From Gammaproteobacteria bacterium (GTDB taxonomy: Bacteria; Pseudomonadota; Gammaproteobacteria; JAJDOJ01): a stretch of DNA of 64,000 bases. The position numbers and the translations under genes were made by a program. The stretch is taken from assembly GCA_022340215.1 (NCBI GenBank), contig JAJDOJ010000164.1:290-64289 (forward strand), read 5' to 3'. Positions 10,262 to 64,000 of the stretch are shown in pieces. The notes beneath the pieces were generated by a model that saw only the letters and a program-made list of their open reading frames with translations, was not told where the DNA came from and ran no database searches. Within the stretch, counting starts at the first letter, position 1. Every line of letters starts with the position of its first letter.

Positions 10262-10509
10262 CGATGAGTCCATTGTGAAAATCGCGATTCTGGAATTTCT
10301 ACCCATTGGACCGACGCGTTACCGGCGGGTTCTCGAGGCCTGTTGCATATGGACAACAAGAGCCGAATCTGCGACGGGTTCGAGCGCAGGAACCGATCTC
10401 GACAACTCTGGAATAGACCCGGAGTCACACGCTAAAGCATAATGCCGCGCAGTCAACAACGAACACCCGCCGGGTAGTCATCCGACAAATTCACCGCTGG
10501 AGTTACGCC

Positions 10510-12108
10510 ATGCCGAAATTACCCGTACATTCGTTGCATCACGATTTCTACCTTGTCCTGTTTCTGCTCCTGATCAGCCAGGGAGTCTCTGCAGCAACCG
10601 GTAAACCCAATATCCTTGTCATCTTCGGTGATGATATCGGGATGTACAACATCGGCGCCTACCACCGGGGATTGCTCGGCGGAAAGACACCTAATCTCGA
10701 CCGCATCGCGGGGGAGGGCGCGATGTTCACGGACTACTACGCCCAGCAAAGTTGTACGGCAGGGCGAGCCGCGTTCATCACGGGTCAGCACCCCTACCGC
10801 ACCGGCATGCTGACCATCGGGATGCCGGGTGACACGCAGGGGATCCAGGCTAAGGACCCCACCATCGCCGACCTGCTGAAACCTCTCGGCTACAACACCG
10901 GACAGTTCGGCAAGAACCACCTGGGCGACCGCAACGAGTTCCTGCCCACGGTACACGGCTTCGACGAGTTCTACGGAAACCTCTACCACCTCAACGCCGA
11001 GGAGGAACCTGAAACCTATTTCTATCCGACCAACCCGGAGTTTCACAAGAAATTCGGCCCGCGCGGCGTACTCAAATGCGTATCTTCCACCAAGGTTGAC
11101 GACAGTGAAGATCCGCGTTTCGGCAAGGTCGGAGCACAGCAATGCGAGGACACCGGACCGCTATCCCGGGAACGCATGACGACCGTGGACGACGAGTTCA
11201 TGAAATCCGCGCTGGATTTCATCGACAGGTCCCATCGGGACGGCAAACCCTTTTTCGTATGGTTTAACTCCACCCGAACTCATGTCTGGACCCATCTCAA
11301 AGAGGATAGCGTGGGCAAGTCAGGCTACGGCCTCTACGCCGACGCGATGCTGGAGCACGACAAGCAGGTAGGTACCCTGCTCGACAAGCTCGACCAGCTC
11401 GGGATCGCGGACAACACCATCGTGGTCTACTCCAGCGACAACGGTGCGGAGGTGTTCACCTTCCCGGACGGTGGTTCGATCCCCTTCAAGGGAGAGAAAG
11501 GCACGACCTGGGAGGGCGGTATGCGCGTGCCCACGCTCGTTCGCTGGCCGGGGGTGGTGGAACCGGGCCGCGTGATCAACGACATCTTCAGCCACGAGGA
11601 CTGGCTTCCCACCCTGCTGGCTGCCGCCGGCGTTCCCGACGTGAAACAGCAGCTGTTGAAGGGCTATGAGGCGGGTGACAAGACCTTCAAGGTCCATCTC
11701 GACGGTTACAACCAGACCGGATTGCTGAGCGGCAAGGACGAAGGCGCCCGCAAGGAGATCTTCTACTTCGACGCCGGCGGACACATGAACGCGATCCGCT
11801 ACAAAGACTGGAAGATCAGCTTCACGATCATGGAGGGCTCCATCAACGAGGCCTATCGAAAGACGCCGAGCTGGCCGATCGTCACCAACCTGCGAATCGA
11901 CCCGTGGGAACGGGCGCCGTTCGAAGGCAGCGGCTACATTCGCTGGTATGCAGACCAGATGTGGATGTTCGTCCCCGCTCAGGCCGCGGCAACGAAGTTC
12001 CTGTCGACCTTCAAGGACTATCCGCAGAGCCAGAAGGTGGGATCTCTCAGTATCGACAACGCAATCGAGATGCTGGAGAACGCGCAGTCCAGCGCCGTGA
12101 GACAATAG
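10510..12108 (+). CDS. Arylsulfatase (type I sulfatase) with a signal peptide and a non-canonical C-T-A-G-R formylglycine motif
   Basis: 532 aa. Signal peptide present. Motif SCTAGRAAFITGQ is followed by the sulfatase metal/active-site regions (GKNHLGD, SDNG). Confidence 0.8.
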   Translation: MPKLPVHSLHHDFYLVLFLLLISQGVSAATGKPNILVIFGDDIGMYNIGAYHRGLLGGKTPNLDRIAGEGAMFTDYYAQQSCTAGRAAFITGQHPYRTGMLTIGMPGDTQGIQAKDPTIADLLKPLGYNTGQFGKNHLGDRNEFLPTVHGFDEFYGNLYHLNAEEEPETYFYPTNPEFHKKFGPRGVLKCVSSTKVDDSEDPRFGKVGAQQCEDTGPLSRERMTTVDDEFMKSALDFIDRSHRDGKPFFVWFNSTRTHVWTHLKEDSVGKSGYGLYADAMLEHDKQVGTLLDKLDQLGIADNTIVVYSSDNGAEVFTFPDGGSIPFKGEKGTTWEGGMRVPTLVRWPGVVEPGRVINDIFSHEDWLPTLLAAAGVPDVKQQLLKGYEAGDKTFKVHLDGYNQTGLLSGKDEGARKEIFYFDAGGHMNAIRYKDWKISFTIMEGSINEAYRKTPSWPIVTNLRIDPWERAPFEGSGYIRWYADQMWMFVPAQAAATKFLSTFKDYPQSQKVGSLSIDNAIEMLENAQSSAVRQ

Positions 12109-12249: not shown

Positions 12250-12824
12250 TCCGCGGGGCGTCATCCGTTCCACTGCCGGCGGCGAGATCGAGGACACGGG
12301 TCAGCTTACGAAGAAGCGCATGGAGACCGTCGACGACGAGACCTCGGACGCCGCCATCGACTTCATCGAGCGGCAGCACAATGTCGGCAGGTCCTGGTTC
12401 GTCTGGTGGAACGGGACCCGCATGCACTTCCGCACCCATGGTAGGCGATTTCTGCCAGAGGAAGGAAATCTTCTACTTCTCCGACGACGTTGACCTGACG
12501 GCCCTGCGTTACGAGGACTGGAAGGTCATCTTCATGGCGCAGAAGACCCCGGGGACCTTCCGGGTGTGGATGGAGCCCTTCACGCCGCTGCGCGTGCCGC
12601 TGATCGAGAACCTGCGCCGCGACCCCTACGAGCGCGCCACCATCACCTCGAACACCGACTACGACTGGCTGCTGGACCGGACGTACGTGCTGGTGCCCGC
12701 GCAGGCCTACCTGGGGCAGTTCCTGGAAACCTTCAGGGAATACCCGCCGCGCCAGAAGGCCGCCAGCTTCAGTCTGGACCAGGTGATGGAAAAACTGTCG
12801 GAAGGTCCCGGGGCGAGTCACTGA
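12250..12824 (+). pseudogene. Decayed arylsulfatase paralog (internally deleted and frameshifted, N-terminal catalytic half missing)
   Basis: One frame encodes EDTGQLTKKRMETVDDETSDAAIDFIERQHNVGRSWFVWWNGTRMHFRTH, aligning with residues around 215-265 of the upstream sulfatase. It then runs into a stop. A second frame (12381..12824) encodes KEIFYFSDDV...RYEDWKVIF...YVLVPAQAYLGQFLETFREYPPRQKAASFSLDQVMEKL, aligning with the C-terminal 130 aa of the intact sulfatase. Confidence 0.75.
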
Positions 12825-35083: not shown

Positions 35084-35256
35084 ACGGCCGAGCTCAGGCG
35101 ATTTCTGTCAAATGACATACCACCCTGCTTGTCTTTTCGTCCGTCCTCTGTGTTGCGACAACAGTGACATAGTTCGACTATGCGCCTGTTGTCGCGCCTT
35201 GATGACGAACGAAAATCGGGCGCGATCTGGTATGCCATTTTCCGGCAATCGCCTCA
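35084..35256. repeat. MITE-like element copy A (about 173 bp, imperfect terminal inverted repeats), located between asd and leuB
   Basis: 5' end ctcaggcgatttctgtcaaatgacatacca and 3' end tggtatgccattttccggcaatcgcctcagg are mutual inverted repeats (about 24 of 30 positions). It is homologous over its full length to 58066..58243, and its 3' end abuts the leuB stop. Confidence 0.55.
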
Positions 35257-36336
35257 GGCCACGAGGGCCGACACCACCGCATCCCCCATTGCCGAGGTCG
35301 ACACCACGGTTTCGTCCCCGGCGGCGATGTCCGCGGTTCGTAGCCCCCGGTCCAGCGCCTCGCCCACTGCGGCCTCGACGCGGTCCGCCAGGTCGGCCCG
35401 GTCCAGCGAGTACCTCAGCATCATGGCCACCGACAGGATGGTCGCCAGAGGATTCGCCCTACCGGTGCCCGCGATGTCGGGCGCGGAACCGTGAATCGGC
35501 TCGTACATGCCCCTGCCGGATGCATCCAGTGAGGCCGATGGCAACATACCGATGGAGCCTGTGAGCATCGCCGCGGCATCCGAGAGAATATCCCCGAACA
35601 TGTTACCCGTCACGATCACGTCGAACTGCTTTGGTGCCCGGACCAACTGCATCGCCGCGTTGTCCACGTACATGTGACTTAGCGACACTTCGGGGTATTC
35701 GCGTGCGACACGTGTAACGACCTCGCGCCAGAGTTCCGACACCTCCAGGACATTGGCCTTGTCGACCGAGCAGACCTTGCGACCGCGTTTCATCGCAACC
35801 CGGAACGCGGAATGCGCAATGCGCGCAACCTCCGATTCCCGGTACACGAGCGTATTGAATCCCTCCTGCTCCTCGTTTTCCAGGGTACGAATTCCCCTCG
35901 GATTACCGAAGTAGATCCCCCCGGTCAGTTCACGCACGATCATGATGTCCAGTCCACAGACGACCTCGTCTCGGAGCGTAGAGGCCGAGGCGAGTTGCGG
36001 ATACAGGACTGCGGGTCGCAGGTTGGAAAAAAGCGCAAGTTCCGAGCGGATACCCAGCAGGCCCCGTTCCGGTCGCAATTCGCGCGAGAGCCCCTCGTAC
36101 TGCGGTCCGCCGACCGCGCCCAGCAGCACCGCGTCGCTCGCCCTGGCGAGATTAAGGGTCTCCCGGGGCAAGGGGTCTCCGGCCACGTCGTAGGCCGCAC
36201 CACCGATCAGGGCTTCCTTGGTCTCGAGGGCGAGATCAAAACGCTCGACGAGCGCGTCCAGCACCTTCCGCGCTTCGGCGACCACCTCCGGGCCGATGCC
36301 GTCTCCCGGCAGCAAGAGCACTTTTCCAACCGTCAT
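35254..36336 (-). CDS. leuB: 3-isopropylmalate dehydrogenase
   Basis: [11 protein letters not shown]...; NAD-IMDH family. Start taken at MTVGKV. Confidence 0.9.
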
Positions 36337-58021: not shown

Positions 58022-58065
58022 CAGACCGCGTTTCCGCTGACTCGATTGAAACCTCGGTGACAACT

Positions 58066-58243
58066 TAGGCGATTTCTGTCAAATATACCCGTCGCGGACA
58101 GGTTTTCACGAGAAAGTGTGTGTCATATTCGTTTCGTGGCAAGGCGCGATGACGCGTAATAGCCGCTCTATTGCAAGGAATCGCAACGCCGCCAACGAAA
58201 ATCCGGCGCATTCTGGTATGCCATTTTCCGGCAATCGTCTTAG
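58066..58243. repeat. MITE-like element copy B (about 178 bp)
   Basis: It shares the 5' end aggcgatttctgtcaaat, an internal gtgtcatattcg block, and the 3' end cgaaaatccggcgcattctggtatgccattttccggcaatcg with copy A at 35084..35256. Both copies are in the same orientation. Confidence 0.55.
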
Positions 58244-58846
58244 CGAAGTGCCCCTCCAGGCGGGTCGGCTGAAGGGACAGCGGCTCACCAGAACGAGGTG
58301 AGCCGCCGCATCCAGCGACAGTCCTGATGGGCGACTGTCCGCCACTTACCTATTCAGGCGGTCGGGATCCCTTTCTGACCCTTGTCAACCGGTCTTCAGA
58401 AACTCGGAGCATTGCGTGGACATGCTTCATCGCTTCAAAGGCGACAGCGACGTAAAGCACATCAGCCTTTCCATGAGCCCAGCCGCAGTTTGCATCGCGG
58501 TTGATCGCCCGCCGTTCATCGATGAAGCGCCAACCAACAGCATGCGGCTCCTCTCGATGACAACAAGTGGACGGGCCTTTGAGGTGTCGCGGCGTTGCTC
58601 CGGTCTGGCCGATCTGGTGTAGATGCGTGAGAAACGACAGCACTTCCTGCCCTTCGCTCCCCAGGTCGACTACCCGGGTCCACCGATTCCCGAAGCACTC
58701 AATGAGGCGGCGTGAATCCGCTCGTCATGACGAGTGAGTCGTATCCCTTCGATTTCGGCCAGGACTCTTTGATGTGCTGTGTTGGAGCGTCGTTTCAAAA
58801 GAGTCTCTACCCGGAAAATTCGATCAAACTCTCGGGAAGATTCGCC

Positions 58847-59100
58847 ATGAGCAAAGTGGGCTTCATTGATTTGGGCGTCATGGGCAGACCCATGGCCGGC
58901 CGGCTGATCGCCGGTGGCCATACGCTGTTCGTTCACTCCAGAAGTGGCGCCTCGCAAGTCATCCTGAACAAGGGCGCCGTCGAATGTGGCAATGGTAAGG
59001 AGGTGGCGGAACACGCCGACGCGATCATCACCATGTTGCCAGACACACCGAAAGTTGCAGTGGTTCTGTTTGGCGGGCGGCATGTGCCTCGAGATATCGA
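58847..59100 (+). pseudogene. N-terminal fragment of a 3-hydroxyisobutyrate / 2-hydroxy-3-oxopropionate reductase family dehydrogenase (GarR/MmsB-like)
   Basis: MSKVGFIDLGVMGRPMAGRLIAGGHTLFVHSRS...ADAIITMLPDTPKV matches the NAD-binding N-terminus of that family. Homology is lost after about 75 aa, and the rest of the gene is absent. Confidence 0.55.
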
Positions 59101-59312
59101 TAGCCCGGCAACGCACGGCTTGAAGTTCGGCAGCACGGTCCATATATTAGACTAATCTAATGTTATTGGGTCTACGAATTTTCGGTTATACAAGGACACC
59201 GTGCCGGTTGCGACATACGGTCCGGCCGGGAGGCATCCGCCGCCCGGCTAAATTCTCAAAACACCTTTGCCGCAATCACGGTTCCCTTTCCGACAGCCAG
59301 GACGAAAAACAG

Positions 59313-60176
59313 ATGAGCGAATCTCCCTATATCACGAATGTCACCCGGGAATCGTTCCCGAGAACGGTGCTACGGAAGTCCCGTGAAGTACCGGTACTGG
59401 TGGATTTCTGGGCGGACTGGTGTGGCCCCTGCCACATGCTGACGCCGGTCCTCGCCAGCCTCGTGGAAAAATACCAGGGCGAATTCCTGCTGGCCAAGGT
59501 CAACAGCGATGAACAGCAGGAACTCGCAGTGCAGTACGGGGTACGCAGCCTGCCCACCGTCAAGGTGTTCCGCAACGGCGAGGTCGTGGACGAGTTCATG
59601 GGCGCGCAACCGGAATCCGTGGTCCGCGAGATCATCGAGCGGCACATCCAACGCGAGTCGGACAAGGTTTTTCTCGCGGCCCGCGCCGCCCTGGAAGCCG
59701 GCGACAAGCGACAGGGGCTGACCCTGCTGGAACAGGCCGCCGGTATGGCCCCGGACAACGCTGAGATCCGCATCGAATGGGCACGTGTCCTGCTCGAAAG
59801 CGGTGACCCCGACGGCGCGTCGGCATTGCTAGATCAACTCGGTCCCGCCGACCGCGACCTGCCGGGTGCCAGAAGGCTGCTCGCGCAGATGGAATTTGCG
59901 CGCAGCGCCGCCGACACACCGGATGCAGGAGAGCTGGCTGCCCGTGTGTCGGCGGCCCCGGAGGATCTCGCGGCACGCTACGGTCTCGGCGCGCACCTTA
60001 TCCTGAAGGGCGATTTCGAGGGCGGCATGGACCAGTTTTTCGAGATTATGCGGCGTGACCGGGCATTCAGCGACGACGCCGGGCGCAAGGCCCTGCTGTC
60101 GGTGTTCGACCTGCTCGGAGAAGGTGACGAACGCGTCAAGCGCTTCCGGTCGAAGATGTTCGCCATTTTGCACTAA
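59313..60176 (+). CDS. cnoX: Thioredoxin-domain co-chaperone with C-terminal TPR-like repeats (YbbN/CnoX family)
   Basis: WCGPC thioredoxin motif followed by a helical TPR-like C-terminal half. The ORF begins at 59160, and MSESPYITNV is the probable start. Confidence 0.75.
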   Translation: MSESPYITNVTRESFPRTVLRKSREVPVLVDFWADWCGPCHMLTPVLASLVEKYQGEFLLAKVNSDEQQELAVQYGVRSLPTVKVFRNGEVVDEFMGAQPESVVREIIERHIQRESDKVFLAARAALEAGDKRQGLTLLEQAAGMAPDNAEIRIEWARVLLESGDPDGASALLDQLGPADRDLPGARRLLAQMEFARSAADTPDAGELAARVSAAPEDLAARYGLGAHLILKGDFEGGMDQFFEIMRRDRAFSDDAGRKALLSVFDLLGEGDERVKRFRSKMFAILH

Positions 60177-60296
60177 CGGAACTGATCTCAAAGGGTAGGC
60201 ATTCCAATGGGGTTTGCCCAGGATCTGAGGTCCTGGAGGCGAAGACAAGGTGGCGGTAAGCGATCAGCGCATGGGGTCTGGTCTTGCATGATAGCA

Positions 60297-60465
60297 TTTG
60301 GCTGCGAATCACCCGCCCCACCGTCGCCGAGCGCAGACCAAAAGGATCGGCAATCGCGCGGTAGCTGTAGACGCCAGTGGCATACGCCGCAACAATGGCG
60401 GCATTGCGCTCGCAGTGCTTGGCGGCTACCGCCTCCAGCGGAGCCGAGGGCCTTCTGCGTTGGGT
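60297..60465 (-). pseudogene. C-terminal fragment (DnaA-like HTH) of a RAYT/IS200-like Y1 transposase-family protein
   Basis: RRRPSAPLEAVAAKHCERNAAIVAAYATGVYSYRAIADPFGLRSATVGRVIRS aligns with the C-terminus of the longer fragment at 63072..63647 (RRPVSRPLTWYFDKHRDRDTAIFEALNSGGYNMREISEHGGLPYSRIGRIV). There is no start, and the stop is lost. Confidence 0.55.
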
Positions 60466-60481
60466 CCTTGAGACATTCAAC

Positions 60482-60544
60482 ACGTAGCGGTCTTGCCATG
60501 GAGGCAGTCTACTCGAGCCACAGTCACGGGACAAGACCTGACCC
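60482..60544. repeat. REP-like 63-bp hairpin repeat, copy 1
   Basis: Identical to 63678..63740: acGTAGcggtcttgcc...ggacaagacctgaccc. It has a GTAG head and a stem ggtcttgcc/ggacaagacc. It sits exactly at the truncation point of ackA. Confidence 0.6.
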
Positions 60545-60547
60545 TCA

Positions 60548-60838
60548 GACTGACCCCACACGGTGCCCGATCGCGGCCAGCTCATTGATATCGTCCATCA
60601 CGTCCGACTCACGCATCGCCTGCCGGATCAGCCCGAACGCAGCATGATGGACCGCGACCGTCTGTTCGTAGACGCGCTTTTGCTGTACGCCCTGTGTGTC
60701 GAGCCAGCCGTGTTTCAGCCGGCTCCCGCTCTCGCCGATACGGTCGAGCACGCCCGAAGTCAGCACACACCGGGCGTCCATCTCGAACAGCTCGTATTTT
60801 ACCGACGAGCTACCGCAGTTAATCACCAGGATATTCAT
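60548..60838 (-). pseudogene. ackA: Acetate kinase, N-terminal 95 codons only (3' end truncated at the REP-like repeat)
   Basis: MNILVINCGSSSVKYELF...AAIGHRV matches the AckA N-terminus. Homology ends at about 60552, and translation runs into the repeat and stops at 60545. AckA is normally about 400 aa. Confidence 0.7.
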
Positions 60839-60842
60839 TCGG

Positions 60843-62957
60843 TCAATCTTTCTGCGCCTGGATCGCGGTGATCGCGACCGTGCTCACGATGTCCGGCACG
60901 GTACATCCGCGGCTGAGGTCGTTCACCGGCTTGTTCAGGCCCTGCAATACCGGGCCGATCGCCAGCGTATTCGCGAAGCGCTGCACCGCCTTGTAGGTGT
61001 TGTTGCCGGTGTTCAGGTCCGGGAAGATACACACGGTCGCCCTGCCGGCGACTTCGTTCGTGCCCGCATCGCCACCCTTCACCTTGGTTTTCGCCACCGA
61101 CGCATCCACTGCGGCGTCGTACTGGATCGGTCCGGCGATTTTCAGGTCCGGTCGCTGCCGCCGGACGATCCCGGTGGCCTCGCGTACCTTGACCACCGCC
61201 GCACCCTTGCCGGATTCGCCGGTGGAATAGGACAGCATCGCAATGCGCGGTTCGACACCGAACTTCATCGCCGTGTCCGCCGAATTGATCGCGATATCCG
61301 CGAGCTGCTCCGCGTTTGGGTTCGGATTGATCGCGCAATCGCCGAACACCAGTACCCGGTCCTGCAGGCACATGAAGAACACGCTGGACACGATCCGGGC
61401 GCCGGGTTTGGTCTTGATGGTTTCGAACGACGGCCGGATGGTGTGCTGCGTGGTGTGCACGGAGCCGGACACCATTCCGTCGGCGAGACCGTGATACACC
61501 ATCATCGTGCCGAAGTAGCTGACATCGGCCATCGCATCGCAGGCCATTTCCTTCGAGATACCCTTGTGCCTGCGCAGGTCGTAATAGGTCTGTGCGAACT
61601 GCTGGCGCAGTTCGGATTGCAGCGGGTCGATGATGTCGACGACGCCATCCAGGTGCAGACCGAGTTCGTCGATTTTGGCGCGGATTTCATCCGGGTTGCC
61701 GAGCAGCGTGATTTTCGCGACATCTCGCAACACCAGAATTTCGGTGGCGAGCAGAATGCGCGGTTCGGTGCCTTCGGGCAACACGATATGCCGGCGCTGC
61801 ACGCGCGCCTTGCGGATGAGTTCGTACTCGAACATCAGCGGCGTGACCCGTGTCGACTGTGTGGTACTGATGCGTTGCAGCAACTTATCGGCTTCGATGC
61901 CGGCCTCGACGATGCCCAGCGCGAGCGCGAGCTTGCGTTCATTACCGGCGCTCAGGCTCGCGGTCACCGCGTTGACGTTCATCGCGGTATTGAATGTGTC
62001 GGTCGATACGCTCAGCACCGCAACCGACACGTTGCCGAGTCCGTCGATCAGCCTCATGATTTCCTTCGCGGGCATCTGGTTGCCGGTCAGCAGCAGTCCA
62101 GCGATCTGCGGATACACGCGCGACGGAAACGACATCAGGCTGCCGAGGATAATATCGGAGCGGTCGCCCGACGTGATGATCAGGCTGTTCGCCTCGATGT
62201 AATTCAGAAAATCCGGCAGCAGCATTGACGCGACCTTGTAGTTGTGCACCTCGCGCTTCAGCGCATCCGGTCCGCAGTACAGGCATTCGGCTTCGAGCGC
62301 GTTCGCGATGTCCCACATCGTGGGCTTGCCAAGCGAGGGGTTTTCAGCGAGCACATACAGCGGCGCGGCCATGCCCAGTGAGCGCTCAACCGCGTACCTG
62401 ACCTGCTCAACCTGCGCCGCATCCACTCTGCTCAGCACGGCAGCAAGAATGTCGCAATCGCGTTCTTCGAGTAAATGAATGAACGCCCTGGCCGCATCGA
62501 CGATCTGCTCCGCGTCGCGCAGATAACCTTTCACGACCGGCATCACATAACAGCCCAGGTTGTTGGCCACGTCCGCGTTGAAGTCGAATTCGAGCGCAGC
62601 GTCGACACCGCTGAAGTCGGTGCCCAGGCAGACAATGTGATCACAATGCACTTGCAGGGATTTGAATTTTTCCAGGATGACCTTGAGCAGGTCATCCTGG
62701 CGATCCCGGGTGATGTAGTCCCTGGCCTGTTCGTGACTGCAACCGAACATCATTTCGAACGGTTGACTCAACGAATAACGCGCAGTCATCAGCTCGATGA
62801 TCGGATCGCCTGAGTGCTCACTGCGAATGACGGGACGGAAAAAGCCCAGACGATTGGTCTGTGTAGACAGCAGTTCCATCAGCCCGAGCGCGACCACGGA
62901 CTTGCCACTTTTCGCTTCCGCGCCGGCCACGTAAATATTCTGTGTCATTGTTCTCAA
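60843..62957 (-). CDS. pta: Phosphate acetyltransferase (long form with N-terminal DRTGG/P-loop-like domain)
   Basis: 704 aa. The C-terminal PTA_PTB domain ends ...GLNKPVNDLSRGCTVPDIVSTVAITAIQAQ. It lies immediately upstream of the ackA remnant. Confidence 0.88.
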   Translation of the reverse strand: MRTMTQNIYVAGAEAKSGKSVVALGLMELLSTQTNRLGFFRPVIRSEHSGDPIIELMTARYSLSQPFEMMFGCSHEQARDYITRDRQDDLLKVILEKFKSLQVHCDHIVCLGTDFSGVDAALEFDFNADVANNLGCYVMPVVKGYLRDAEQIVDAARAFIHLLEERDCDILAAVLSRVDAAQVEQVRYAVERSLGMAAPLYVLAENPSLGKPTMWDIANALEAECLYCGPDALKREVHNYKVASMLLPDFLNYIEANSLIITSGDRSDIILGSLMSFPSRVYPQIAGLLLTGNQMPAKEIMRLIDGLGNVSVAVLSVSTDTFNTAMNVNAVTASLSAGNERKLALALGIVEAGIEADKLLQRISTTQSTRVTPLMFEYELIRKARVQRRHIVLPEGTEPRILLATEILVLRDVAKITLLGNPDEIRAKIDELGLHLDGVVDIIDPLQSELRQQFAQTYYDLRRHKGISKEMACDAMADVSYFGTMMVYHGLADGMVSGSVHTTQHTIRPSFETIKTKPGARIVSSVFFMCLQDRVLVFGDCAINPNPNAEQLADIAINSADTAMKFGVEPRIAMLSYSTGESGKGAAVVKVREATGIVRRQRPDLKIAGPIQYDAAVDASVAKTKVKGGDAGTNEVAGRATVCIFPDLNTGNNTYKAVQRFANTLAIGPVLQGLNKPVNDLSRGCTVPDIVSTVAITAIQAQKD

Positions 62958-63071
62958 TACTCTTGAGTCGGATTCGCCGCCCGGAATATCCAGGCCGGTC
63001 GGCAGTGTCTACACCCCCGTCATCAGGCTCTGATGGAATCAGGCGGTACCTATCGTGCAGCACAAACAGGG

Positions 63072-63647
63072 TCAGGTCTTGTCTCGTGCCTTTTCAGGTA
63101 GATTCACAATTCTGCCGATCCTGGAATAAGGTAATCCACCATGCTCGCTAATCTCTCGCATATTGTAGCCTCCACTATTCAAGGCTTCGAAAATCGCAGT
63201 ATCGCGATCTCGGTGTTTGTCGAAATACCAAGTCAACGGCCGGGACACGGGCCGTCGTTGCGTCTTGGGGATTTCACTCAAGCGTCGGTCTGCGTCTATT
63301 TTGCGCTGCATCGTATCCACAAATGCATCTGAATCCAGATAGATTTGATTCTTGAGTTCTTGCCAGGGGAAAGGCCGATTCTTTCCGTCGGCGACAAACC
63401 GTCGGTACGCGGTCTGTGCCTGTTGCTTGCGTTCGGCGAACGCGGCCAGTATCCAGTCGATCTCCAGCCAATTGGGCACCACGGTCATTCCTACCGTAAC
63501 CCGATAGTTGCTCCAGGGCCAATCCCGTGCCGTGCGTACCATGCGGGCGCGAACGGGATTGAGAACGATGTAGCGAGATAACTCCAACAGATGATCGTCT
63601 TTTTGTACCAAGATGGCCTTGTATCGGCATTGATAGACGTGTCCTAC
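63072..63647 (-). pseudogene. 5'-truncated RAYT/IS200-like Y1 transposase-family gene (catalytic HuH N-terminal part missing; C-terminal DnaA-type HTH retained)
   Basis: It begins immediately after an in-frame TAG with GHVYQCRYKAILVQKDDHLLELSRYIVLNPVRARMV...WPWSNY (conserved core of the family). No start codon. The REP-like repeat lies 30 nt upstream. Confidence 0.65.
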
Positions 63648-63677
63648 CTACCCGATAAGGGCTCCAGCAAACTCTAT

Positions 63678-63740
63678 ACGTAGCGGTCTTGCCATGGAGG
63701 CAGTCTACTCGAGCCACAGTCACGGGACAAGACCTGACCC
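63678..63740. repeat. REP-like 63-bp hairpin repeat, copy 2
   Basis: Exact copy of 60482..60544 in the same orientation. Confidence 0.6.
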
Positions 63741-63812
63741 CCGCTTGCATACAGGAACGCGACCCGTTATCGCTAAGATGCCCGCGGTAACCCGACGATC
63801 TGGCGGCGCAAC

Positions 63813-64000
63813 TACTTCGCGAAGGTCCCAACGAGTTCCGCTTGGGCTATGACATGACCCTGCATTGCCGCTTCGATTCTGGCTTTGGTCGGCGTTTTCA
63901 TCTCCTCGAGCTCGAGGTCCAGCGCATAAAGCTTATGGAAATAGCGGTGTCGTCCGATGGGTGGGCAAGGGCCTCCGTATCCGGCACGTTTCCAGTCGTT
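63813..64000 (-). CDS. YbhB/YbcL (PEBP, Raf-kinase-inhibitor-like) family protein, C-terminal part (the gene continues beyond the window)
   Basis: The reverse translation ends ...GYGGPCPPIGRHRYFHKLYALDLEL...AMQGHVIAQAELVGTFAK*, which is the conserved PEBP C-terminus. Confidence 0.6.

Follow-up and report, generated by a model that had tools for sequence, protein, structure and literature searches.

A pta gene and a truncated ackA between two decayed TIRtron copies, one of them apparently chimeric, in an uncultured gammaproteobacterium

The closest described systems to the locus reported here are the TIR-associated tyrosine transposases (TIRYTs), whose elements are named TIRtrons (Di Nocera, De Gregorio & Rocco 2013, BMC Genomics 14:522). 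According to PMC3733652, most of the terminal inverted repeats (TIRs) that flank TIRYT genes share the motif GGGGWSAS, and in some genomes TIRtron repeats also occur singly, as dimers or in clusters. The equivalent of TIRYT in a second classification is TnpA_Y1 subclass 2.1, with which that study found no associated REPs (Quentin, Siguier, Chandler & Fichant 2018, BMC Genomics 19:475). The searchable literature holds no experimental demonstration of TIRYT transposition.

The window analysed here is a stretch of 64,000 nucleotides (64 kb) from a metagenome-assembled gammaproteobacterial genome whose protein accessions include MCG6869383-85, with locus tags in LJE91_; with its flank, 71 kb of this genome were covered. 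Its last part carries pta and a remnant of ackA between two modules, E1 (60273-60544) and E2 (63069-63740), both on the minus strand. It is quite probable that these modules are two decayed TIRtron copies in the same orientation, that a 63-bp repeat shared by them is the 5’ end of the element, and that a copy of the E2 lineage was inserted in ackA and then underwent fusion.

The 63-bp repeat occurs exactly twice in the window (60482-60544 and 63678-63740), with 100% identity and in direct orientation, as the first-pass annotation had recorded, and the match between the copies extends to 68 nt at 97%; shuffles of the window gave no match of this type. Read on the minus strand, the repeat opens with the TIR GGGTCAGGTCTTGTC, continues with a leader of 30 nt and ends with the first six codons of a transposase gene (the ATG and codons 2-6), which encode MARPLR. 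In the first copy, the TIR lies at 60530-60544 and is followed by the leader, the ATG (60499-60497) and codons 2-6. In the second copy, the TIR at 63726-63740, taken with its preceding Gs, reads GGGGTCAG and fits GGGGWSAS, and the remaining 63678-63725 hold the leader (63696-63725), the ATG (63695-63693) and codons 2-6, identified by translation; the N-termini of the homologs P0002 and P0011 read MARPLRIEFAGALYHV.

The same annotation had described the 63-mer as a REP-like repeat, with a GTAG head and a 9-bp stem, which merely abuts the gene fragments. These descriptions did not hold: the repeat is the 5’ end of the element and no extragenic palindrome, and the gene begins inside it, with the start codon and the rest of codons 1-6. 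The “GTAG head” arises where the codons CTA CGT, for Leu-Arg in the conserved N-terminus MARPLRIE, are read as their reverse complement, and the “stem” is the TIR paired with the ATG-Ala-Arg-Pro codons. Folds of the 63-mer DNA are no more stable than those of shuffled sequences on either strand (z = +0.68 and +0.27, or 0.3 to 0.7 rounded). Sequestration of the start codon by pairing between the TIR and the start region was also considered and rejected: the pairing is not conserved in the intact elements L002 and L007, each of which has 1 uncompensated mismatch, and in the 63-mer it is no more stable than in shuffles.

The E2 module is a 672-bp TIRtron remnant, a whole element that has lost ~235 bp internally, and its limits were taken from alignment to the intact 903-bp elements of L002 (636-1538) and L007. 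A tblastn search with P0002, a full-length homolog of 284 aa, placed residues 1-13 at 63695-63657 (identical) and residues 94-284 at 63647-63075 (83% identity), such that the internal deletion takes out transposase residues ~14-93, including the HUH motif. The ends of E2 (63069-63091 and 63718-63740) are inverted repeats, 91-92% complementary over 23-24 nt, with GGGGTCAGGTCTTGTC at both. The 3’ TIR (63069-63091, plus strand) covers the last codons and the stop of the gene, GAC AAG ACC TGA, or D K T stop, and this overlap is also present in L002. The intact relatives L002 and L007 have the same layout over ~900 bp: 903 bp separate their inverted repeats, of which the 3’ one lies over the DKT-stop, and GGGGTCAGGTCTTGTC stands inverted at both ends of L002, L007 and L035.

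The window transposase fragments alone gave no Pfam match, and the E2 fragment 63075-63647 matched NCBIfam REP_Tyr_transpos partially, at positions 103-146 of 146 (the last 44). In P0002, the Y1_Tnp domain (PF01797) covers residues 13-120, and HTH_28/HTH_23 domains are placed at residues 245-275 of P0002, P0087 and P0071, of which only P0087 (27.4 bits) passes the Pfam cutoff. Bac_DnaA_C had no match in the full-length homologs checked, which indicates the “short” version of the HTH. The minus-strand neighbours of the repeats are thus correctly described as fragments of the Y1/HuH family with a C-terminal HTH, given the 83% match of E2 to P0002 and a diverged HTH piece in E1. Since the repeat fits GGGGWSAS and the C-terminal HTH matches subclass 2.1, these elements belong to the already known TIRYT/TIRtron kind, and both E1 and E2 have lost the HUH region and are now incapable of making an active transposase. 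The E2 ORF has been deposited as “addiction module toxin RelE”, a database misannotation that this assignment corrects. The truncated 179-aa ORF was evaluated as a possible conserved short protein, of which there was no sign: P0017/L163 lacks the E2 deletion and is a nearly full-length copy that decayed separately. A 176-aa homolog from another MAG, P0009, is labelled “partial”.

The likeness to TIRtrons covers the intact homologs, with ~280 aa of Y1/HUH protein and a C-terminal HTH of HTH_23/HTH_28 type, and the position of the gene between GGGGWSAS-type TIRs, the 3’ repeat overlapping the gene end. The copies in the window differ in being dead deletion derivatives, one of them a two-lineage chimera, and in lying at rearrangement breakpoints, where one element end adjoins a truncated housekeeping gene. 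REP/RAYT systems (REPtrons, REPINs) share a related Y1 domain, a gene between inverted short sequences, and doublets dispersed in some genomes, but the flanks here are not GTAG/CGTC-tagged palindromes, they form no fold by themselves, they do not reach high copy number in the 64-kb window and 7 kb of flank, and the protein has an extra C-terminal HTH. The intact relatives also resemble IS200/IS605 elements in having Y1_Tnp with HUH and the catalytic tyrosine and no evident target-site duplication. However, IS200/IS605 elements end in subterminal hairpins instead of TIRs, while the ends here are inverted repeats of 15-24 nt, and their TnpA has about 130-150 aa without HTH, against 284 aa with HTH for the present protein.

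The E1 module is a 272-bp mini-TIRtron that appears to be chimeric. Its 5’ part (the first ~68 nt) holds the TIR, leader, ATG and ~8 codons of the E2 lineage, and the remainder comprises ~66 C-terminal codons and a degenerate 3’ TIR from a distant TIRYT lineage. The C-terminal HTH fragment (SRTQRRRPS...SCKTRP; 60274-60471, minus strand) shares 38% identity with the C-terminus of E2, as measured over 52 aa, and 47% with L035; the 3’ TIR (60273-60286, plus strand) reads GGGGTCTGGTCTTG, with 1 mismatch in its 13-nt core. Among the closest elements compared (P0002, P0011 and L101, with proteins 81-87% identical), the 5’ ends are 84-87% identical, and those of distant elements are about 70-75% identical, a pattern in which the element 5’ end evolves as fast as the gene. 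The identity of E1 and E2 at 63 of 63 positions, despite C-termini that are 38% identical, therefore points to recent copying. The first reading of the fragments as old and diverged and of the repeat as recent was sound, apart from the identity, given there as about 45%. The repeat had been proposed to have moved, as a free REP, onto older remnants; instead, both modules derive by deletion from TIR-bounded elements, the 63-mer is the element’s own 5’ end, and that of E1 came recently from the E2 lineage.

Between the two elements, pta (60843-62948, minus strand) is intact, as had been noted, with 701 aa and the domains AAA_26, DRTGG and PTA_PTB. It matches NCBIfam PRK05632 with 880 bits over positions 1-700, and its dN/dS against relatives is 0.12-0.14. 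The ackA remnant (60556-60838, minus strand) has 94 homologous codons, its open frame running on to a stop at 60545, and it matches positions 2-90 of 392 of the Pfam domain Acetate_kinase. In a tblastn search with the AckA of L011, only residues 1-94 matched, and no further ackA piece was found in the window or in L001. Alignment with relatives that carry intact ackA-pta showed a full-length ackA (398 aa) directly after pta, with a divergent xfp upstream of pta. In all three comparisons (L010, L011 and L164), the ackA homology stops at 60556, which is 11 nt from the E1 TIR. The gene is decapitated beside the element, as first described, but the cut falls after codon 94 and the homology ends at 60556 rather than at the repeat edge, 60545. 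The 11-nt filler in between (60545-60555, minus strand), delimited by alignment to the intact ackA of L011 and L010, reads GGTCAGTCTGA and resembles the TIR with two 1-nt deletions; it may be derived from TIR-like sequence. The ackA junction is also present in L001 (99.986% identity) and L009 (which spans 60365-60975), both assemblies from other samples; the two further samples are JGI 3300037398 and ENA ERZ23500106.

On the other side of pta, an upstream region common to relatives (62949-63021, minus strand) is retained, and synteny is lost past about 63021, 48 nt from E2, again in 3/3 comparisons; xfp is absent upstream of pta in the window. These alignments place both E1 and E2 at points where synteny breaks in an ancestral xfp<->pta-ackA cluster. 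A further 82 nt (60191-60272) separate trx from E1. In the relatives that match the trx side, L160 and L161, a tsdA-like cytochrome gene follows trx; the nearest relative on this side (95% identity) has no TIRtron there, which implies more than one rearrangement at the locus. The earlier view that the locus was rearranged at the elements is retained, and its attribution to REP/RAYT gives way to a TIR-flanked TIRYT subtype. Promoter scanning of 60100-63900 returned 0 promoter-like sites, terminator-like sites in the same interval were at about the shuffle level, and Rfam (gathering thresholds) and tRNA scans of the whole window gave no matches.

The most likely history would begin with the transposition of an E2-lineage copy into ackA after codon 94, which would leave the element 5’ end facing the ackA remnant. 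The inserted copy may then have recombined with an older TIRtron remnant of the same orientation located downstream, with the crossover in the ATG-MARPLR box, the sole block conserved between diverged family members. With such a recombination, the remainder of the inserted copy would have been lost, together with some 300 codons of ackA and anything beyond them. The identity of the two 63-mer copies begins exactly at the TIR tip and stops inside this conserved start box. The corresponding intermediate, an ackA interrupted by a complete element, was not found among the loci compared, nor is an intact master copy known for the E2 lineage: the exact 62-mer has 0 matches in 185,579 representative genomes, and the exact 42-nt leader has 0 matches in a metagenome collection that evidently lacks the sample of the JGI-derived L001. 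Against this history, it leaves the 11-nt filler and the 82 nt at 60191-60272 without account.

An alternative without any third copy is that E2, 3.2 kb away, converted the 5’ end of E1, and that an unrelated deletion cut ackA at E1. At either end of the identical tract lies a block that the whole family conserves, the repeat on one side and the MARPLR box on the other, as would be expected of a conversion tract, and the failure to find an intermediate with the full element in ackA agrees with this proposal. Nevertheless, the flanking homology would be very short (15-18 nt per side), and an independent deletion ending ≤11 nt from the element tip would be a coincidence. Moreover, E1 passes from codon ~8 to the ~66 C-terminal codons right past the identical tract, for which fusion is the simpler explanation, and gene conversion is accordingly held to be improbable.

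Movement of the whole 3.47-kb unit (60273-63740) as a composite, with pta and the remains of ackA for cargo, to a site between trx and the PEBP/egtDB genes, is very unlikely. Both outer flanks do differ from those of relatives, with a tsdA-like gene after trx in L160 and L161 and no xfp upstream of pta, and the outer ends of the unit, the E2 5’ TIR and the E1 3’ TIR, are inverted with respect to each other. However, the sequence to the right of E2 is unlike the post-trx sequence of the relative, which argues against a simple insertion, the 82 nt between trx and E1 are unexplained, both transposase genes are dead, and there is no known precedent for composite movement by Y1 elements.

The proposal that a RAYT mobilised the 63-mer, as an extragenic palindrome of the REP type, to sites beside two old RAYT remnants draws on the relatedness of the protein family to RAYTs (homologs bear the JGI label “REP element-mobilizing transposase RayT”), on the partial REP_Tyr_transpos match, and on the 15-nt repeat occurring in other metagenomes as short inverted doublets without transposase. 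It is scarcely plausible, since the leader, the ATG and six codons lie inside the 63-mer, GTAG falls within the codons of a conserved Leu-Arg pair, shuffled sequences fold as stably, and no free copies exist in the window and 7 kb of flank. In addition, the 18-nt repeat is unamplified in 185,579 species-representative genomes, where it has 26 single matches, the gene adjoining in only 1, and occurs at most once per genome, except for the two inverted ends of the single L035 element; the reported lack of REPs for subclass 2.1 (Quentin et al. 2018) is a further argument against it. A chimeric assembly at the 63-nt exact repeat, a kind of sequence that can be misjoined near the assembler k-mer size in a metagenome-assembled genome such as this one, is barely credible, given that the path through the repeat is the same, apart from one SNP each, in three assemblies from different samples, and that the junction of ackA, filler and repeat lies outside the repeat and leaves ackA interrupted in any case.

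Beyond this locus, internally deleted derivatives are common in the TIRtron family. A mini family of ~295 bp is present in three unrelated flanks (L057, L110 and L140), built like E1 but keeping more N-terminal coding sequence, and 21 short inverted pairs without transposase were counted in 16 loci of 621 kb of repeat-bearing metagenome DNA, with doublets of 46-163 bp. Deletion derivatives of ~270-300 bp with both start codon and C-terminal HTH preserved go unmentioned in the text of Di Nocera 2013 and Quentin 2018. To judge from sequence, E1 (272 bp), the ~295-bp minis and the 46-163-bp doublets would resemble MITEs, keeping both inverted repeats and losing the transposase, although the parent transposase is Y1/HUH and not DDE. 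The minis in three unrelated flanks and the element tip adjoining a cut ackA are indirect indications of a putative TIRYT-driven mobility of the repeats, and no conserved target sequence or target-site duplication was visible beside the 5’ repeat of 13 elements.

These observations add circumstantial support to the notion that the little-studied TIRYT elements are mobile, interrupt genes, recombine across lineages and give rise to miniature derivatives. A bolder proposal, tentative and rather doubtful, is that the locus is a natural record of TIRYT activity, with a precise insertion into ackA, a chimeric mini formed by different lineages at the start box and perhaps the pta-ackA stump moved as cargo between two TIRtron ends. 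If this were true, then together with the minis and doublets it would depict TIRtrons as active, mobile and a source of MITE-like offspring, and not as domesticated single-copy genes.

The analysis also corrects a likely misreading of the locus as a REP/RAYT system. In this uncultured gammaproteobacterial population, the xfp-pta-ackA cluster (the phosphoketolase/acetate branch) appears to have been broken up at TIRtron copies, and pta is left without an adjacent acetate kinase, which is relevant to the metabolic reconstruction of this MAG. On the other side of E2 lie the PEBP/egtDB genes, of which the PEBP gene runs off the window.

E1, on the ackA side of pta, and E2, upstream of pta, are dead TIRtron copies (TIRYT-type Y1 transposase genes with terminal inverted repeats) at rearrangement breakpoints, elements of a kind already known and thinly studied; this replaces the REP interpretation of the 63-mer that they share. 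The 63-mer copies at 60482-60544 and 63678-63740 are identical at all 63 nt and in the same orientation, as the first-pass annotation had reported, and the match extends to 68 nt at 97%. No other copies are present in the window, and shuffling the window never produced a match. On the minus strand the 63-mer consists, in order, of a terminal repeat (GGGTCAGGTCTTGTC), a leader of 30 nt (CCGTGACTGTGGCTCGAGTAGACTGCCTCC) and six codons, ATG GCA AGA CCG CTA CGT, which encode M-A-R-P-L-R. An inverted copy of its outer end (15-24 nt, 91-92% complementary) lies at 63069-63091, and a degenerate one, GGGGTCTGGTCTTG, at 60273-60286.

The full-length homologs closest to the gene fragment next to the repeat have 284 aa, with the N-terminus MARPLRIEFAGALYHV, Pfam Y1_Tnp at residues 13-120, an HTH_28/HTH_23-like C-terminal helix-turn-helix at 245-275, and the C-terminus KARDKT. 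Upstream of their genes stands the same sequence as in the 63-mer, with an identical 15-mer 30 nt ahead of the ATG, and an inverted 15-mer covers the stop and the three codons before it (GAC AAG ACC TGA); the compact element measures about 903 bp from repeat to repeat (loci L002, 636-1538, L007 and L035). Since these genes share the layout of repeat, leader and ATG, the "GTAG head" of the first-pass annotation is the complement of the Leu-Arg codons and not a REP head. Likewise, the "9-bp stem" is the terminal repeat paired with the ATG-Ala-Arg-Pro codons, and the 63-mer as single-stranded DNA folds no better than shuffles on either strand (z = +0.68 and +0.27).

Di Nocera et al. 2013 (PMC3733652) gave the name TIRYT to RAYT-like genes with terminal inverted repeats on either side, and TIRtron to the whole unit; GGGGWSAS is common to many of these repeats, which may overlap the ends of the gene, and TIR families are moderately abundant in some genomes as single, dimeric or clustered repeats. 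The repeat here, GGGGTCAG, agrees with this motif. Quentin et al. 2018 (PMC6006769) assign the majority of TIRYTs to TnpA_Y1 subclass 2.1, whose defining trait is a Bac_DnaA_C/HTH_23/HTH_28 domain at the C-terminus, and report no REPs near subclass 2.1 genes. Every defining TIRYT/TIRtron feature testable here is found in E2 or its intact relatives, whereas the stable GTAG-headed hairpin of REP/RAYT systems and the defining features of IS200/IS605 are absent. In the searchable literature, the term TIRYT occurs only in these two papers and no experimental demonstration of TIRYT transposition was found.

E2 (63069-63740, minus strand, 672 bp) spans a whole element that has lost about 235 bp internally: codon 13 (…AGAL) is joined directly to residue ~94 (VGHVYQCRYKAILV…), the HUH motif is gone and 4 nt are duplicated where the two parts meet. 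The 191 codons that follow are 83% identical to the full-length homolog P0002 and align with the C-terminal third of the NCBIfam model REP_Tyr_transpos. In the database the leftover ORF (63072-63611, minus strand, 179 aa) is labelled "addiction module toxin RelE" (MCG6869385.1), as are several homologs, a misannotation because the ORF is a truncated TIRYT. E1 (60273-60544, minus strand, 272 bp) follows E2 for its first ~68 nt; from there it continues directly with some 66 codons of the C-terminus (SRTQRRRPS…SCKTRP) and the degenerate 3' repeat. The protein fragments are diverged, as first read, at 38% identity over the 52 aa compared and not at ~45%.

The exact 62-mer has no match in 185,579 species-representative genomes, and the 18-nt repeat occurs there in 26 stretches, at most one per genome, with one of the 26 (L035) adjoining a TIRYT gene; these genomes thus show no REP-like amplification. 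A metagenome scan with GGGTCAGGTCTTGTCYC gave at least 120 stretches (621 kb). Among the 120 matches listed, 19 stretches contain a TIRYT homolog, and inverted pairs are full-length (about six, 874-924 bp), mid-size (seven, 292-315 bp) or short (21 in 16 loci, outer span 46-163 bp), the short ones often showing the extended repeat GGGGTCAGGTCTTGCCTTTTGCC and lacking a transposase homolog in all but one of the 16 loci. Four mid-size elements (L057 = L090, L110, L140), 83-100% identical to each other within three unrelated flanks, have the architecture of E1 (5' repeat, leader, ATG, N-terminal codons plus C-terminal HTH, 3' repeat) at only 53% identity to it. Given such internal-deletion derivatives, E1 and E2 fit a family-wide spectrum. 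Some metagenome contigs hold tandem direct TIRtron repeats 24-37 nt apart or several doublets within 2-5 kb (L104, 657-695; L074, 10796-10849; L067; L083), a local clustering like that in the TIR families of Di Nocera et al.

The pta gene (60843-62948, minus strand) is intact, as first described, with AAA_26, DRTGG and PTA_PTB domains and an NCBIfam PRK05632 match of 880 bits, and is under constraint, as its dN/dS against relatives is 0.12-0.14. The ORF downstream (60545-60838) covers only positions 2-90 of 392 of the acetate kinase model, and no further ackA piece occurs in the window or the 7 kb beyond. Relatives with Pta 87% identical have divergent xfp, pta and, 4 bp downstream, full-length ackA (L010, and L011 with both XFP_N and Acetate_kinase, positions 1-357 of 392); in L164 the order is pta, ackA (398 aa), a glyoxalase gene and TumE. 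DNA homology to all three ends at 60556 (…CACCGTGTGG), so ackA is indeed cut, but 11 nt short of the E1 repeat rather than exactly at its boundary; the filler, GGTCAGTCTGA, resembles the repeat minus two single bases. Homology to L011 starts near 63021, leaving 48 nt up to the 3' repeat of E2, and that to L160, a 95% identical relative, is lost at 60190, just past a thioredoxin-TPR gene, beyond which L160, L161 and L162 carry a tsdA-like cytochrome gene. With homology breaks on both sides and TIRtron remnants there, the locus is a mosaic with these remnants at its joints. Misassembly is unlikely because other assemblies agree: L001 (JGI contig, other sample) has the same structure with both 63-mers (99.986% over 7,066 bp), and L009 (614-bp ENA scaffold) covers 60365-60975 with one mismatch, crossing the entire repeat and the ackA junction, which lies outside the repeated segment.

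Against L010, dS is 0.62 for pta and 0.12 for the ackA stump, whose dN/dS (0.36) is above that of pta; over just 94 codons, these suggestive values may point to recombination between lineages with a breakpoint within the pta-ackA operon (60557-62948 compared). L010 also has a second, partial ackA (10270-10882, 3' half, residues ~156-359) some 1.4 kb downstream of the first, so ackA and its surroundings are unstable in this clade even where TIRtrons are lacking.

Across the family, divergence of the 5' 68-70 nt tracks that of the protein: identity to E2 is 84-87% in the closest relatives (P0002, P0011 and L101; 81-87% protein identity) and about 70-75% in distant elements, which keep just the repeat and the ATG-ARPLR box of the 5' end. 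As the E1 C-terminus is 38% identical to that of E2, a largely different leader is thus expected in E1. The 63/63 identity means that the E1 5' end is a recent copy from the E2 lineage. A recent repeat beside old diverged fragments therefore holds; a free REP landing there does not, the 63-mer being the transposase element's own 5' end. The identity begins exactly at the repeat tip and stops inside the conserved start box, with two mismatches in the next 5 nt and unrelated sequence after that. Most likely, a copy of the E2 lineage would have inserted into ackA after codon 94 and later fused, by a crossover within the start box, with an older same-orientation downstream remnant of another lineage, a fusion that would have removed the remainder of the inserted copy together with three-quarters of ackA at its 3' end; no intermediate was found. 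Conversion of the E1 5' end by E2 is a weaker alternative, which adds an unrelated deletion, and a composite move of the whole 3.47-kb TIR-bounded unit is a weak one. As circumstantial evidence, the locus suggests that TIRtrons are mobile, disrupt genes and leave miniature derivatives behind.

Beside the E1 locus, 58046-59093 is unalignable to L160, and so forms a second patch of decay or rearrangement; the NAD_binding_2 ORF at 58712-59155 seems to preserve just the N-terminal end of a 3-hydroxyisobutyrate-dehydrogenase-type gene. An intergenic MITE-like repeat of ~165 bp, unrelated to the TIRtron repeat, lies at 35090-35260, with imperfect terminal inverted repeats of ~30 bp (CTCAGGCGATT…AAATG.CATACCA), a 50-nt partial copy (90%) at 58194-58243 and two inverted copies in L161 (4650-4811 and 16257-16418, 11.4 kb apart); it gave no match in Rfam or tRNA searches. 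Finally, a 73-nt direct repeat (11752-11824 and 12462-12534, 74% identity, 710 nt apart) looks coding (…GACTGGAAG…) and possibly derives from tandem paralogous genes.
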